Below, one piece after another: positions 1,185 to 22,893 of a stretch of 64,000 nt of DNA. Under the pieces are notes generated by a model. The model was not told where the DNA came from. It worked only from the letters and a program-made list of their open reading frames with translations, and did not search any database. Numbering within the stretch: position 1 is the stretch's first letter; every line of letters starts with the position of its first letter. Origin of the DNA: a virus (taxonomy: Duplodnaviria > Caudoviricetes); the IMG/VR virus record IMGVR_UViG_3300013121_000019, positions 32,001 to 96,000 of that record, one strand, 5' to 3'. Position numbers and translations under genes: made by a program.

Positions 1185-3257
1185 ATGAGTACCGACAACT
1201 TCCCGCAGTTCGCCAACATCGTGGCGCGATCGTTCCAGCACATGGTCAAAGACCCGGTCTTCGTGGCCAACATCGACGGCGACGCACTCTACCAGGCGTA
1301 CCTCGAGGCGTTTCCGGAGGGGACCAATCCCATCTTCAAGAAGGCCACGGAGCACGACTGCAGCTGCTGCCGGCACTTCATCAAGCGAGTCGGCACGGTG
1401 GTGACGATCGAGGGCCGTGAGGTCCGCACGATCTGGGACCACGCCACCCTGCAGGCTCCTGGTGTCTACGCCCACGTGGCAACCGTCCTGCGGAACCTCG
1501 TGCGTAGTGCTCGCATCCGCGACATCTTCCGCGTGGGTGCGCGAGAAACCCGGTTCGGGGCGAGGGTTTCGCGCTCCCTGGATCCCGAGACGCAACGGGC
1601 CATCACGTGGAACCACTTCTACACCGGGGAGATCCCCAGCAACCTGCGGACCGACCAGGTCGACACCGTGCGGGGCGACTACCGCACGACCGTGCAAGTC
1701 TTCGAGCGTGGTCTCGTCGAGCTCAAGCCCGACGCGATCGAGACCGTTCTCTCCCTCATCCAGGCCAACAACCTGTACCGGGGGGAAGAGCACAAGACGG
1801 CGGTCATGGGCTTCCAGAGGCTCCAGCGCGAGTTCAACGCCAAGAGCGCGGCCGACCGTAACCTCTTCGTGTGGGCGAACGCCAACAGCCCCGGTGCGCG
1901 GTTCCGCAACACCGTGATCGGCACGCTGGTGCAGGATCTCTCCGAGGGCATGGATCTCGAGGCGGCCGTCCGGTCCTTCGAGACCAAGGTAGCCCCGCAG
2001 AACTACAAGCGTACGACGGCGCTGATCACACCCATGATGGTGAAGAAGGCGATGGAGACGATCGAGTCCCTCGGTCTCGAGTCGGCTCTCGAGCGTCGCT
2101 TCGCGGTCATCGGCGACGTCTCGGTCAACGACGTCAAGTGGGTCGACGGCACGGTGAAGCCCCTGATGAAGGGCGGCATCGGCGACAGGCTGATGCAACA
2201 CGCCACCACGGGTCGCGTTTCTAGCAAGAGCGACGAGGAACGCGCCGAGGACATCAACATCGACGACTTCATGACGAAGGTCTTGCCGGAGACCCAGGGC
2301 ATGGAGATCCTGTTCAAGAACGAGCACGCAGGCAACCTGATGTCGCTCACGGCGCCCGTACACCCGGAACCCCGACAGCTCTTCCGATGGACCAACGACT
2401 TCGCCTGGTCGTACGGCGGGAACGTTGCCGACTCCATCAAGGAACGGGTCAAGAAGGCGGGAGGCCGGGTGACCGGCGTCCTGCGGGTCTCGCTCAGCTG
2501 GTTCAACTACGACGACCTGGACCTCCACATCGAGCAGCCGTCGGGCCGCGGTATGAACGCGGCGATCAACCGCATCTACTTCGGCAACAAGCACGGGTGG
2601 ACCGGCGGTACCCTCGACGTCGACATGAACGCGGGTCACGGGGCCACCCGTGAGCCGGTGGAGAACGTCATCTGGCCCGGCAAGATCCCCGATGGGTCTT
2701 ACAAGGTCGTGGTCAACAACTACTGCTTCCGCGAGTCCAGCAACCCTGGCTTCGTCATCGAGGTCGAGAACGGCGGCAAGGTCTCGCACTTCTCGTACAA
2801 CAAAAGCGTGAGGAGCGGGCAGGACATCCGCGTCTGCACGCTACACATGAAGGATGGCCTCATCGTCCAGGTCGACCCTGGTGACCCGGGCATCACCGCG
2901 TCCGCCATCTCGCAGGAGAAGTGGGGCCTCAAGACCGAGACCTACGCCAAGGTCACGGCCGTGATGTTGAGCCCCAACTACTGGGGCGATAACGCCGTCG
3001 GTAACAAGCACACGTTCTTCGTCCTCGAGGGAGCAAAGAGCGACGAGGACACTCGTGGGTTCTACAACGAGTTCCTCCACCCCCGCCTCGAGCAGCACCG
3101 CAAGGTGTTCGAGGTCATCGCCGACAAGACCAAGTGCCGTCCCACCGAGGGGCAGCTATCGGGACTCGGCTTCTCCTCCACCAAGAAGGAGACCTTCGTC
3201 GTCCGCGTCCAGCAGGGCAAGAAGCAGCGCCTGTTCAACGTGCACGTAGGCACCTGA
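1185..3257 (+). CDS. conserved large phage protein with YfaP/DUF2135-like C-terminal domain
   Basis: 690 aa; HDCSCC motif; SLSWFNYDDLDLH...LDVDMNAG...PVENVIW...GSYKVVVNNY resembles the YfaP-like beta-sandwich signature. Confidence 0.7.
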   Translation: MSTDNFPQFANIVARSFQHMVKDPVFVANIDGDALYQAYLEAFPEGTNPIFKKATEHDCSCCRHFIKRVGTVVTIEGREVRTIWDHATLQAPGVYAHVATVLRNLVRSARIRDIFRVGARETRFGARVSRSLDPETQRAITWNHFYTGEIPSNLRTDQVDTVRGDYRTTVQVFERGLVELKPDAIETVLSLIQANNLYRGEEHKTAVMGFQRLQREFNAKSAADRNLFVWANANSPGARFRNTVIGTLVQDLSEGMDLEAAVRSFETKVAPQNYKRTTALITPMMVKKAMETIESLGLESALERRFAVIGDVSVNDVKWVDGTVKPLMKGGIGDRLMQHATTGRVSSKSDEERAEDINIDDFMTKVLPETQGMEILFKNEHAGNLMSLTAPVHPEPRQLFRWTNDFAWSYGGNVADSIKERVKKAGGRVTGVLRVSLSWFNYDDLDLHIEQPSGRGMNAAINRIYFGNKHGWTGGTLDVDMNAGHGATREPVENVIWPGKIPDGSYKVVVNNYCFRESSNPGFVIEVENGGKVSHFSYNKSVRSGQDIRVCTLHMKDGLIVQVDPGDPGITASAISQEKWGLKTETYAKVTAVMLSPNYWGDNAVGNKHTFFVLEGAKSDEDTRGFYNEFLHPRLEQHRKVFEVIADKTKCRPTEGQLSGLGFSSTKKETFVVRVQQGKKQRLFNVHVGT

Positions 3258-3325: not shown

Positions 3326-3736
3326 ATGAGCATCGACAGCATCTTCCTGTACGCCACCCGCAACAAGATCCGCTTCGCGTCGTCCCGAGGAGCCCTCACG
3401 GTCGAGCAGCTCTGGGACGTTCCGCTGCGCTCTGCCGATCAGTTCAACCTCGACGTCATCGCCAAGGGCATCAACAAGACCGTCAAGGAGGCGGCCGAGG
3501 AGAGCTTCGTCTCTACCAAGAAGACCACGGCACAGACGCAGCTCGAGACCGCGCTCGAGATCGTCAAGACCATCATCGCAGCCAAGCTCGCCGACGAGGA
3601 CGCGGCCAAGAAGCGCGCAAGCAACAAGCTCGAGAAGGAGAAGCTCCTGAAGATCCTCGCCGAGAAGCAGGACGGCAAGCTCTCGGCGCTCACCGAGAAG
3701 GAGCTCCAGGACCGAATCGCGGCTCTCGAGGAGTGA
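3326..3736 (+). CDS. conserved phage hypothetical coiled-coil protein
   Basis: AAGGAG RBS then ATG 3326 (MSIDSIFLYATRNKIRF...LTVEQLWDVPL); helical C-terminus. Confidence 0.75.
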   Translation: MSIDSIFLYATRNKIRFASSRGALTVEQLWDVPLRSADQFNLDVIAKGINKTVKEAAEESFVSTKKTTAQTQLETALEIVKTIIAAKLADEDAAKKRASNKLEKEKLLKILAEKQDGKLSALTEKELQDRIAALEE

Positions 3737-3757
3737 GCTGCTGATCGAGCAGTAGCC

Positions 3758-3796
3758 GGGACAGGCGTCTCCCGAAAGGGGGATGCCTGTTCTTTT
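3758..3796 (+). terminator. intrinsic terminator
   Basis: GACAGGCGTCTCCC-GAAA-GGGGGATGCCTGTT hairpin followed by CTTTTAGCTAC. Confidence 0.85.
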
Positions 3797-3850
3797 AGCT
3801 ACACCTACGCAAACATAGGCATAGTCACGAGATAACAGTCGTAAGGAGGG

Positions 3851-4666
3851 ATGATGGCCGACATCAGCTTACTTGTTAGCGACGACGACGCAACGAACGC
3901 CAAACCCTGGCGACAACATGACCTAACCGGACAGGTCATTCACGAAGTGGTGGTGGAGGCATGCATCGCCACCACGATAGACAAGCAGAAGAAGTGGAGA
4001 GTTCGCTGTCTGTCTTGTGGAGGTGCGTTCGCGCGTACGACCTACGAGATCAATCAGTACCGACGTGACCGCACCACGTTTTCTTGTCGGACGTGCTTCG
4101 AGGAGCTTCGCGACGGCACGCGCAGTGAGCGTCGAAGCTACTGGCACATGCGCCTGAAGCAGTTCTGGGACCAGTACGGCATCCTGTACGGTGCCAGCTA
4201 CCATCACGCAGAGATCGAAGCCCTACGTGAGGCGTTCTTCGCCGACGAGGGACCGCCGATGGAGCATTTGCGACCGGAAGACCTGACGGTGGCAGTAGCT
4301 GGACGGAAACAGCCACACACTGCCCGTATTCAGAACGTCTTCGAGCTGTACCCGGTGAGGGCCGGCAAATCCGAGGCGTTCAATTGCGAGTACTGTAGCC
4401 GACTGCACACGAAGGGGTTCGCGTGCACGTGCTGCCGCACGGTGGTGTGCTGCGCGTGCGTGGAAAACGAAACGCATGCCTGCGAGGGCAGCGGGCACGA
4501 GCACGACGAGTCCGCTGGATGGGTGACCGATCGGCACGGGCAGCTGGTATACGACTGGTACGCCGGTAGTCAGCCGGAGTTCCTCAAGCGCATCGCGCAG
4601 TCCTGCCTGCTCTCCAAGGTCAAGGTGACCAAAGACGGTGGGCTGGCGACATTCCGACGAGCATAA
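3851..4666 (+). CDS. hypothetical Cys-rich (zinc-binding) protein
   Basis: AAGGAGG RBS; several CxxC motifs (CLSC, CRTC, CEYC, CTCC, CCAC). Confidence 0.7.
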   Translation: MMADISLLVSDDDATNAKPWRQHDLTGQVIHEVVVEACIATTIDKQKKWRVRCLSCGGAFARTTYEINQYRRDRTTFSCRTCFEELRDGTRSERRSYWHMRLKQFWDQYGILYGASYHHAEIEALREAFFADEGPPMEHLRPEDLTVAVAGRKQPHTARIQNVFELYPVRAGKSEAFNCEYCSRLHTKGFACTCCRTVVCCACVENETHACEGSGHEHDESAGWVTDRHGQLVYDWYAGSQPEFLKRIAQSCLLSKVKVTKDGGLATFRRA

Positions 4667-4671
4667 GCGGT

Positions 4672-4709
4672 GAAACGTGCATCCCGGCGTGGGGCGCGCG
4701 TTTCACTAG
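4672..4709 (+). terminator. probable terminator hairpin separating the upstream gene from the RAMP-like unit
   Basis: GAAACGTGC...GCGCGTTTC inverted repeat followed by ACTAG, like the other terminators here. Confidence 0.55.
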
Positions 4710-4732
4710 GTACTACAAATCGCGCTAAACAA

Positions 4733-4741
4733 CGGAATAAG
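4733..4741 (+). promoter_or_regulatory. putative phage promoter CGGAATAAG driving the RAMP-like gene and array
   Basis: Identical to the 1114-1122 motif and the same 29 nt from an upstream CACTAG; followed by GAGGAGG RBS. Confidence 0.65.
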
Positions 4742-4762
4742 CACTATGAGGAGGTTACCTTC

Positions 4763-5419
4763 ATGACCGATAAGAAGACCGCAGATGATGCTGGTTCCGA
4801 GGCCAAGGGCCAGATCCCGCCGCCGAAGTTCGCGATCGCCGAGTTCATCCTGACCGGGAATGCCCCGTACGTCAGCAACAAGTTCTCCCAGGAGGCCCGC
4901 GAGATGATGCGGGCCAAGCAGGCAGCCGGCTCCACGGCTCGCAAGGGCGCCAAGCGCGAGCCCAAGGACTTCGACAAGTGCTTCAAGCAGTCGATGCACG
5001 CGACCGAGGACGGCAAGTACGGCGTGCCGGCGTCGTGCTTCAGGCAGGCCCTCGTCAGCGCTTGCCGCATCGTCGGGTTCAAGATGACGCTGGCGAAGCT
5101 CGCGCTGTTCGTGGTCGCCGACGGCATCGACGCGGACGACGCCAGCCCACTGGTGTTGTTCACGAAGGGGGAACCGCAGCACTTCGAGAGCGCCACCCGC
5201 AACGAGACCGGCGTGGCCGACATCCGCGCGCGTGGCAAGTGGGATACCGGATGGCAGATCCGTCTGCGCGTCCGGTACGACTCCGACATGTTCACGAAGT
5301 CCGATGTCACCAACCTGCTGGCGCGCGTCGGCGTGCAGGTCGGGATCGGCGCCGGAAGACCCGACTCCAAGACCTCCTGCGGTCAGGGATGGGGTACGTT
5401 CGATATCGAGGCGGTCTAG
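4763..5419 (+). CDS. stand-alone RAMP/Cas7-like RNA-binding protein (candidate effector of the adjacent 5-nt-period array)
   Basis: GAGGAGG RBS, ATG 4763, 218 aa. N-terminal strand EFILTGNAPY; YGVPASCFRQALVSA resembles the RAMP 'IPGSSLKGALR' helix; C-terminal Gly-rich loop GIGAGRP...GQGWGTF. No other cas genes in the window. Confidence 0.75.
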   Translation: MTDKKTADDAGSEAKGQIPPPKFAIAEFILTGNAPYVSNKFSQEAREMMRAKQAAGSTARKGAKREPKDFDKCFKQSMHATEDGKYGVPASCFRQALVSACRIVGFKMTLAKLALFVVADGIDADDASPLVLFTKGEPQHFESATRNETGVADIRARGKWDTGWQIRLRVRYDSDMFTKSDVTNLLARVGVQVGIGAGRPDSKTSCGQGWGTFDIEAV

Positions 5420-5420
5420 C

Positions 5421-6001
5421 GGCCAAGCTGGCTGAGCTAAGAATGGTGTGGCCCAGCATGCCTGAGCATGGCGAAGCGGGCAGGGCGTAGCTAGGAATGG
5501 CTAGTCAACGCACAGCGGGCATGGCATGGCTTGGCAACGCCAAGCAAGGCCAAGCAGGCTAGGTGGAGCAATCACGGGCTTGGATTGGCGAATCGTGGCA
5601 AAGCAGAGCGAGTCCAAGCAGGCTCAGCGCGGCGTGGCTTGGTCAGGCCAGGCAGGCGTGGCAGTGGAGGTGGAGCATGGAATAGACGAGTTCGGTCAGG
5701 CAACGCAGAGCCGGCGTGGCATGGCACCGCTGCGAGCAGCTCGGTAAAGCAAAGCCGGCGAGGCTTAGCTACACCAGGAAGGACAAGGCAAAGCAGGCGT
5801 GGCGGAGCGGAGCGGGGTGTGGCAAAGATGCGCGAAGCAGCGCAGGCCGCGCTGGGCATGGCAACACCGAGTAAGGAGGTGAATGGCCAGGCAGGCTGAG
5901 CAAGGTGTGGCGAGGCGGCGCAACGCGCAGCAGAGCTGAGCAGCACCATGCTGGCGTAGCTGAGCTTGGCGTCGCCCGGCGCGACGGGGCTTAGTGAAGC
6001 C
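5421..6001 (+). ncRNA. array of about 12 putative guide-like RNA units built from (RGC-NN)n pentamers
   Basis: Strict 5-nt periodicity from just after the stop codon to the terminator; phase resets at NGC-N-GGC junctions give units of 34-64 nt. Confidence 0.8.
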
Positions 6002-6040
6002 AGGAACGAACACCCTCTTCGGAGAGTGTTCGTTCCTTTT
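6002..6040 (+). terminator. intrinsic terminator closing the RAMP-like gene/array unit
   Basis: AGGAACGAACAC.CTC-TTCG-GAG.GTGTTCGTTCCT stem with cUUCGg loop, then TTTTAGCTAC. Confidence 0.9.
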
Positions 6041-6045
6041 AGCTA

Positions 6046-6408
6046 CTACTTCACTCGCGGATCGACCTTCGGAACGTGGCCAGACGGGTTGGCCTTCGGG
6101 ACGTCGGCCCGCGGATCCGCCTTGGCGACCAGCGTCTTGGCGGCCTTCTCGGCAGAAGGGTCTTTGGGCTCGCGCTTCTTCCGCGGGGCACCCGACAGCT
6201 CCGGCGTCGCCTTGTCCCGCTTCCGACGGAGCTCATCGATCAGCGTGTTGACCTGCTGACGGCAGGCCCCGCAGAGATCCTGGAACTCGAACGTCAGCGG
6301 CCACTTGACCTCGAGGGCAGGTCTGTGGGCGATCTGCTCTACCTTCGGCTGGTACTCGACGCGGGGGCACCGGTCGCACTGGATCTTGACGACCTCTTCA
6401 CGCGCCAC
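6046..6408 (-). CDS. hypothetical zinc-binding protein with basic tail
   Basis: CDRC...DLCGAC motifs; Lys/Pro-rich C-terminus. Confidence 0.65.
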   Translation of the reverse strand: MAREEVVKIQCDRCPRVEYQPKVEQIAHRPALEVKWPLTFEFQDLCGACRQQVNTLIDELRRKRDKATPELSGAPRKKREPKDPSAEKAAKTLVAKADPRADVPKANPSGHVPKVDPRVK

Positions 6409-6554
6409 GGACCTTACCCCGCAGCTTGTAGAAGAGGTACGTCTTGATCGCCGCCTTCTCGGACCTCACCAGGGGGTCGTTCGGCAGCGACTGGAACCAG
6501 GCGTCGAAGGCCGCGATGTCCGCGTCTACTTCCGCTTCGATCGCGGCCTTCTGG

Positions 6555-22837: not shown

Positions 22838-22893
22838 GTTATGCCGCAGAAGGCCCGCGTTGTGCGTAAAGAACAAGCAACAGCCGGCATAAC
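22838..22893. promoter_or_regulatory. divergent pair of putative promoters (CGGCATAAC on both strands)
   Basis: GTTATGCCG at 22838-22846 and CGGCATAAC at 22885-22893, between divergent genes. Confidence 0.65.

Follow-up and report, generated by a model that had tools for sequence, protein, structure and literature searches.

A probable VIPR locus with a staggered RGC-NN guide array and no accessory gene in a large uncultivated phage

The 64,000-nucleotide (nt) stretch analysed here (hereafter the window; positions 32,001-96,000 of the virus record IMGVR_UViG_3300013121_000019, about 72% complete, whose whole contig measures 132 kb) carries on its plus strand a lone gene for a 218-amino-acid (aa) RAMP protein, followed by a tract with a period of five bases. 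From homology, sequence features and analogy to Escherichia phage SUSP1, we consider it very probable that this locus is a Viral Interference Programmable Repeat (VIPR) system; a large uncultivated phage would carry it as an accessory cassette, and it would work by the SUSP1 mechanism. The VIPR family was first described in 2026 preprints (bioRxiv 10.64898/2026.04.26.720920, 10.64898/2026.04.26.720927 and 10.64898/2026.10.15.759431; hereafter the VIPR preprints). A sequence-only reading of the window had named such systems; they exist, and the window protein is homologous to SUSP1 Vipr. The novelty which that reading implied for a non-CRISPR RNA-guided system does not stand, as stand-alone vipr genes, staggered arrays and related consensuses such as YNNNG are already mentioned in 10.64898/2026.04.26.720920. 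Since VIPR is published, the window locus would be a further member of the family rather than a new kind of system, and what it adds is modest: a subclade without vap that uses RGC scaffolds, and a candidate protein determinant of scaffold specificity.

The reference Vipr gene of SUSP1 (KT454805; our locus L001, 28477-29061, minus strand) is flanked by GGYNN tracts, and residues H17, R138, D177, W178 and R179 of its product fit the published numbering. Taken singly, the product of the window vipr gene (4763-5419, plus strand; ATG at 4763, stop codon at 5417-5419) matched no family in a Pfam scan, returned only noise in a PDB search and gave an unusable AF2 model (pLDDT 38). BLASTP aligned its C-terminal half with that of SUSP1 Vipr (E = 4e-5), and hhalign of a 93-sequence family profile against SUSP1 Vipr yielded 93.5% probability (E = 2.3e-7) over 174 columns at about 20% identity. 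A profile search of all PDB sequences returned 36pp_D, 'SUSP1 Vipr protein', as the sole significant chain, and phrog_4652, which is defined by SUSP1 Vipr, matches the window protein over residues 30-216. By three sequence methods, the window protein is a Vipr homolog. It shows the minimal RAMP fold (a single RRM core, a glycine-rich loop and a thumb), with RNA-targeting type III and type VII backbone subunits as the nearest solved folds, which together with the profile comparison bears out the earlier description of a RAMP/Cas7-like protein. The C-terminal glycine-rich loop claimed at the same time is present, namely as GVQVGIGAGRP at residues 190-200 (GIGAGRP at 194-200), but it is not the CGQGWG motif, which sits C-terminal to the aligned loop within a clade-specific extension. 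The family-invariant residues G190, G198, R199, G207 and G211 are all retained in the intact open reading frame (ORF). After strand 1, at the catalytic position of Csm3 and Cmr4, there is no conserved acidic residue, and the family column is mostly T.

Directly behind the gene, the vrRNA array (5421-6002, plus strand) consists of units of the form [G/A/C]-G-C-N-N. The lag-5 autocorrelation of 5421-6001 is 0.45, whereas shuffles give 0.287 +/- 0.018 (z = 9.3); harmonics follow at 10, 15 and 20, and lag 3 shows no rise. This is the sharp periodicity anticipated from the sequence, and no second period-5 tract was found in any other part of the 132-kb contig, the window included. With 4-nt units allowed, a Viterbi parse resolved all 582 nt into 119 consecutive units in 14 blocks without leftover. 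Earlier hand counts of about 117 triplets, about 44 GGC, about 30 AGC and about 107 with a central G were accurate, the parse giving 119, 45, 31 and 109, together with 10 CGC units and C or T at position 3 in 107/119. The accompanying view of the tract as triplet plus dinucleotide throughout needs amending in one respect: such units do cover all of it, but not in a single phase, as a 4-nt unit every 7-13 units shifts the register by -1, and a phase tracker places register shifts every 35-80 nt. GG[CT] opens each of the 14 blocks, and a 4-nt unit (AGCN, CGCA, GGCA or similar) closes each of the first 13; 12 of the 14 are of guide length, with 7-13 units. Block 1 (5421-5429), directly 3' of the stop codon, is a two-unit leader, GGCCA AGCT. 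The parse gives as candidate guides block 2 (5430-5478, 10 units), block 3 (5479-5517, 8 units), block 4 (5518-5556, 8 units, the cleanest), block 5 (5557-5620, 13 units, several of them degenerate near the 5' end), block 6 (5621-5654, 7 units), block 8 (5669-5712, 9 units), block 9 (5713-5756, 9 units), block 10 (5757-5795, 8 units), block 11 (5796-5844, 10 units), block 12 (5845-5893, 10 units), block 13 (5894-5952, 12 units) and block 14 (5953-6002, 10 units), which adjoins the terminator; block 7 (5655-5668) has just 3 units and is probably degenerate. All blocks lie on the plus strand, and the parse leaves no tails or spacers between them. Position 1 is G in 58%, A in 28% and C in 12% of units and almost never T; 26% of units are AGC and 8% CGC, and the slip unit is mostly AGCN. 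An Rfam search over 4400-6400 at E <= 1 gave no match, so neither a hammerhead nor another known RNA is indicated there, and the fold of the whole array (z = -2.8) is uninformative.

Gene and array are bracketed on the vipr strand by a promoter motif and a terminator, in agreement with the single apparent transcription unit described before, all elements of which (promoter motif, ribosome-binding site, gene and terminator) were recovered in place. The promoter-like motif, GGAATAAG-N6-GAGG (4734-4751, plus strand), is phage-specific and fits GGNATAAS-N6-GARG, a pattern that occurs 6 times in the window versus 0.06 expected from a pattern count and is probably this phage's own promoter type; a consensus scan found no sigma-70-like site in 4400-6500. 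Further copies of the pattern lie at 22886, 34255, 36416, 44153 and 44598. Direct reading of the sequence places the ribosome-binding site GAGGAGG (4747-4753, plus strand) 9 nt 5' of the ATG. The intrinsic terminator (6002-6040, plus strand; hairpin part 6002-6037) comprises a 15-bp interrupted stem, a c(UUCG)g loop and UUUU; it folds at -25.1 kcal/mol (z = -5.9), with 0/200 shuffles as stable, and was absent from the consensus-scan output because it has just 4 U.

The architecture recurs across the family, which numbers 1,220 near-length relatives in a collection clustered at 90% and forms 2,072 clusters at 50% identity, with at least 486 relatives in viral contigs. We compared 153 loci (Cyanophage Cy-LDV1, Mycobacterium phage Donkeykong and 149 IMG/VR contigs, plus the window), parsed with a model uninformative at repeat position 1 and with at least 20 good units required for an array call. 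Arrays are carried by 126 of them (82%), in every case on the vipr strand and never on the opposite one, with differing variable dinucleotides (NN), as had been expected of homologs of the window gene. The 4-nt units recur in nearly all of these arrays, block length peaks at 10 units, the boundary signal A-N/GGCA/GGC is conserved over 598 boundaries, and the block-opening GGC is 94-99% G, also in arrays whose other units are relaxed at position 1. The short unit, read as xGC-N-[G]GC, would represent a 1-nt overlap between neighbouring guides. Scaffold positions hold 1.4-2.0 bits of information, compared with about 0.05 bits at NN. Among loci whose Vipr proteins are 97-99.9% identical, 20% of NN strings are shared, and none at 90-97% or, more generally, below 97%; partial sharing between loci proceeds block by block. 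As judged from these comparisons, the guides turn over far faster than the Vipr protein.

In most of these loci, vipr has a companion. Cy-LDV1 g33 and Donkeykong gp50 are homologous (E = 3e-19, phrog_15946), and a hidden Markov model (HMM) built from the two finds a same-strand partner gene in 138/153 loci (90%); the partner has no Pfam match and its PHROG family carries no annotated function. The vap1 gene of SUSP1 (phrog_5926) has no homolog at the window locus. Stand-alone vipr genes are published, and a missing accessory gene therefore does not exclude membership of the VIPR family. The four closest relatives of the window protein (77-84% identical) all have S38, N39 and A197 and all lack the accessory gene; their arrays begin at the stop codon with the same two-unit mini-block, have 15-46% A at position 1, end their blocks mostly in AGCA and hold 22-46 guides, in four unrelated gene neighbourhoods. 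The heavy use of AGC and CGC, which had been singled out for the window copy and is correct there, is a trait of this subclade. Upstream of the locus, genes for a 690-aa and a 144-aa protein are syntenic in 21 related large phages, in none of which (0/21) vipr, the 271-aa gene preceding it or the genes downstream occur within 10 kb; on this comparison, the vipr module is an accessory cassette. Viral carriage is indicated by the IMG/VR virus record and by tape-measure, endolysin and helicase matches. As an observation on the host phage, the 690-aa protein (1185-3257; phrog_1735, E = 1e-235) is 65-74% identical to counterparts in viral contigs of 130-390 kb, and the 144-aa phrog_2018 gene follows 3' of the 690-aa gene in at least four viral contigs, the pair being a marker for these large phages.

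The unusual scaffold can be set against the RNA contacts reported for SUSP1 Vipr, in which H17 and D177 read G1, R138 and W178 read G2, and R179 is among the residues that read the pyrimidine (VIPR preprints). The contacts to G2 and to the pyrimidine are common to both proteins, R138 corresponding to R157 in the window (R in 90/93 family sequences) and R179 to R199 (invariant in the family), whereas H17 and D177, which contact G1, and the stacking W178 are replaced by N39, A197 and G198, the last being invariant as G in the window's clade; the window protein also has an extra 8-residue insert before GWGTF. The tolerance of A and C at position 1 is likely due to the replacement of both G1-reading residues while the G2 and pyrimidine contacts are kept. 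Of the 93 family representatives, 48 have E and 39 have A at residue 197, which covaries with strand-1 residue 38: Q accompanies E, and S accompanies A. In 77 loci retained after 90% dereplication, the median fraction of A at position 1 was 0.016 at E197 (n = 44) versus 0.127 at A197 (n = 32; Mann-Whitney p = 6e-9, uncorrected), with medians of 0.38 for S38/A197 and 0.80 for M38/A197, and Donkeykong, which has D at position 197, uses only G at repeat position 1. On the best tree, residue 197 changes 7 times, and 7/7 A197 clades lie above their nearest E197 relatives in A-fraction. We regard the A197-AGC link suggested by these data as a consistent association and a mechanistic lead, in which A197 appears permissive rather than sufficient.

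Two cases illustrate the range of position-1 usage. L055 and its relatives L088, L089, L094 and L111 have arrays of about 80% AGC-NN and combine A197 with M38 (Q38 in one), a pattern that resembles an almost complete exchange of the scaffold base more than a relaxation. L043 (2572-4107; E197) has about 280 units, 27% of which have C (CGC) and hardly any of which have A at position 1; residue 197 is therefore not the sole determinant of position-1 usage. As a tentative hypothesis that we hold to be possible but rather doubtful, proteins with Q38 and E or D at 197 would require GGC, those that combine A197 with a residue 38 of S, G or M would accept AGC, and one clade would prefer it, making these proteins natural scaffold-pocket variants. 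If this is true, scaffold recognition itself is evolving and the window system is an intermediate of relaxed specificity; a possible driver would be the insulation of phage Vipr from rival 'solo' vrRNAs, as satellites' solo vrRNAs hijack SUSP1 Vipr (VIPR preprints), and the same residues could give orthogonal Vipr-vrRNA pairs for multiplexed silencing. The pocket-repeat pairing opens a direct and cheap test of RNA recognition by Vipr.

Comparison with published systems places the window closest to the staggered-array VIPR described in 10.64898/2026.04.26.720920, in which neighbouring guides are offset by one base, so that each begins where the one before it ends. Both have a lone Vipr RAMP in a phage, five-base units on the same strand with a 1-base offset, hypervariable NN and no self-targeting, and both are free of a 3' tail, ribozyme or CRISPR repeat; the window differs in its G/A/C at position 1, in a slip unit that is mostly AGCN where the family has GGCA, and in having no accessory gene. 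Its position 1 fits the YNNNG class rather than strict GGY, with the array reaching the threshold of at least four units. With type II SUSP1 (Vipr, vap1 and four vrRNAs; PDB 36pp), the window shares a protein homologous over nearly its full length, 5-nt units, guides of about 10-12 units, carriage by a phage and long non-coding flanks. SUSP1 vrRNAs, however, are separate RNAs of about 100 nt, each with a conserved pseudoknotted tail, whereas the window guides are staggered and tail-less; neither such separate, tailed vrRNAs nor a vap1 counterpart, the marks of type II, occur at the window locus. The preprint 10.64898/2026.04.26.720920 lists GGY>AGY among the scaffold substitutions tested in SUSP1 and reports that a perturbed GGY motif abolished silencing; the natural use of AGC is therefore a real difference from type II. 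A genomic language model has also found non-canonical period-5 arrays beside Vipr-like folds with fixed triplets other than GGY (bioRxiv 10.64898/2026.10.21.760802); their motifs are GAC, CAC, WGT and TGH, some of them, as in the window, degenerate at one position, and the available part of that preprint makes no mention of an RGC consensus or of a link to protein residues. The backbones of class 1 CRISPR systems (Csm3, Cmr4, Cas7) step by 6 nt with 5 paired bases, compared with 5 nt and 2 paired bases in VIPR. Unlike them, the window RAMP has no partner Cas proteins, repeat-spacer array or adaptation genes, and the Cas5, large subunit, Cas6 and array of a class 1 effector are missing. No Cas1 or Pfam RAMP match was found in the 132-kb record, an absence that is not absolute given its completeness, and no CRISPR-like tandem array of 25-40-nt repeats in the window, in line with the earlier statement that cas genes and such an array are lacking. 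In sum, the window locus has the defining VIPR traits that are recognisable from sequence in protein, array and context; it lacks the type II specifics and the accessory gene, which is typical but not universal.

Based on this homology, we propose the following hypothetical mechanism. In SUSP1, one protomer binds each repeat, NN is displayed and the target is read with a 1-nt skip (VIPR preprints). In the window, a single transcription unit running from the promoter motif to the terminator would encode the 218-aa Vipr and a 582-nt precursor of about 12 guides, each guide comprising 7-13 units with a strict GGC start and a 4-nt end unit completed by the first G of the guide that follows. By analogy to SUSP1, one Vipr protomer would occupy each unit, burying the constant xGC among the thumb, helix 1 and the G-loop and displaying the two variable bases, and the resulting filament would pair with double-stranded DNA while leaving each third base of the target unpaired. 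It would cover 20-38 bp and keep a competing mobile element or a host gene from being transcribed; the system would act without the accessory gene carried by most of the clade. The core of this scheme, one subunit per triplet and a gapped reading of NN, had been put forward in the sequence-only reading; it is established for SUSP1 and would extend to the window locus by analogy.

Several results weigh against this interpretation. An HMM search at E <= 10 found no phrog_15946 partner gene anywhere on the window's contig. About 10% of the window units have no central G and 10% no pyrimidine at position 3, and some blocks are degenerate. For the pocket, a 13-locus A197 clade with V or I at residue 38 is barely above its E197 neighbours in A-fraction (0.06 vs 0.05), and with relatedness controlled in a sign test the covariation is not significant, just 2-3 independent contrasts falling on supported branches. 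The proposed search with NN strings and gaps has produced no convincing target. In public collections, which were scanned for exact patterns only, three full-length guides had 0 matches in viral contigs, and the block 13 guide had 0 in metagenome and genome contigs as well; two 18-base patterns gave 6 and 22 matches, about what chance provides, and other guides did not converge there. One site matching at 20/20 positions (L176) was judged to be due to chance, its skipped bases lying at codon position 2 and the second guide 12.7 kb off. A set of 246 guides, drawn from all loci, showed no excess at any skip rule when compared with 0.8 Mb of VIPR loci, and the window guides had no match in 433 kb of related large phages. 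On the supporting side, the composition of NN (39% GC vs 62% in the genome) fits codon positions 1-2 better than 2-3 or 3-1, with a margin of 21-45 log-likelihood units, and also better than genomic dinucleotides, with a margin of 15; a flat model scores slightly above the codon one, however, so the composition test does not discriminate. Also in favour of the interpretation, self-targets in the phage's own genome, searched with skips of 0-3, did not exceed those of shuffled guides, which agrees with the published lack of self-targeting in VIPR.

Part of this evidence could also mean that the locus is a VIPR relative with a different code or substrate, such as an RNA target, another skip length or a position 1 that carries information as a third base. 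In its favour, the nearest solved structures belong to RNA-targeting subunits, position 1 is G in just over half of the window units, identity to SUSP1 Vipr is low, and no target backs the 1-nt skip in this clade, skip rules 0-3 being indistinguishable on the sequence compared. Nevertheless, all seven VIPR types share the alternating motif or a related consensus, with targets of the other types found by the same rule (10.64898/2026.04.26.720920); position 1 is G or A in 86% of units, which speaks for relaxed recognition rather than free coding; and the family has no conserved acidic residue at the Csm3/Cmr4 catalytic position. We consider a different code improbable. More improbable still is a decaying remnant, that is, an inactive cassette that has lost its accessory gene and whose array is drifting towards AGC, CGC and irregular units. 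The loss of a gene found in nine of ten loci, the degenerate units and the count of 12 guides, compared with the larger arrays of the closest relatives, would fit decay. The ORF is intact with all invariant family residues, however, as are promoter motif, ribosome-binding site and terminator, and SUSP1 Vipr and vrRNA repress without vap1 (VIPR preprints). Moreover, 4/4 closest relatives combine the missing accessory gene with the same RGC usage and large arrays in four neighbourhoods, and this likeness therefore points to a stable subclade design.

The reading with the least in its favour, which we regard as highly unlikely, is that the periodic tract is not guide RNA but a translated low-complexity ORF or a repeat acting at the DNA level, for example an array of binding sites. 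In its favour, the tract can be read as ORFs of 122 and 125 aa, on either strand. The period is 5, with lag 3 not raised; the tract lies between promoter motif and terminator on the vipr strand, a strand linkage kept in 126/126 array loci; and its sequence is not conserved between near-identical loci, which share few NN strings, and this excludes a conserved protein product from it. In addition, the homologous period-5 tracts of SUSP1 were sequenced as RNAs co-purifying with Vipr (VIPR preprints). VIPR is a very recent addition to RNA-guided systems, of which only type II has been studied at the bench. If the VIPR assignment is correct, the window locus offers a compact example, with one protein, one array and no accessory gene, from a large clade with staggered guides and natural variation in the accepted scaffold base.

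The two named phages in our set also bear on existing records. In Donkeykong (NC_051648, L003), the coding sequence gp48 (3444-3830, 'hypothetical protein') nearly coincides with a 64-unit GGC-NN array at 3495-3808, which lies upstream of the Vipr homolog gp49, and has probably been called as a gene in error; the gp49 homolog occurs in about 27 mycobacteriophage records, 0 of which are annotated as VIPR. In Cy-LDV1 (BK059895, L002), two vrRNA arrays (4611-4801 and 5393-5559) flank the partner gene g33, which lies just downstream of the Vipr homolog g34; the module sits between a cI-like repressor region and an excisionase, and none of it is annotated as such. These two public annotations, in which array DNA or its surroundings are called as protein genes, need correction. 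Donkeykong additionally has an unrelated 19-nt tandem repeat of about 10 copies (L003 7561-7748), which the period-5 parser picked up on the opposite strand only.

Around the window locus, the gene directly upstream (3851-4666) encodes a 271-aa Cys-rich protein with several CxxC pairs, which matches neither Pfam nor PHROG families and to which none of the 153 VIPR loci and none of the 21 sister phages has a counterpart. A hairpin (4670-4706, plus strand) directly 3' of its stop codon forms the 5' limit of the vipr unit; the surrounding 4664-4733 folds at -26.8 kcal/mol (z = -2.9), without a U tract. On the other side, a convergent minus-strand gene for a 120-aa protein (6046-6408) opens with a CxxC...CxxC pattern and contains, within its C-terminal part, a 27-nt tandem repeat of 2.5 copies (6056-6123).

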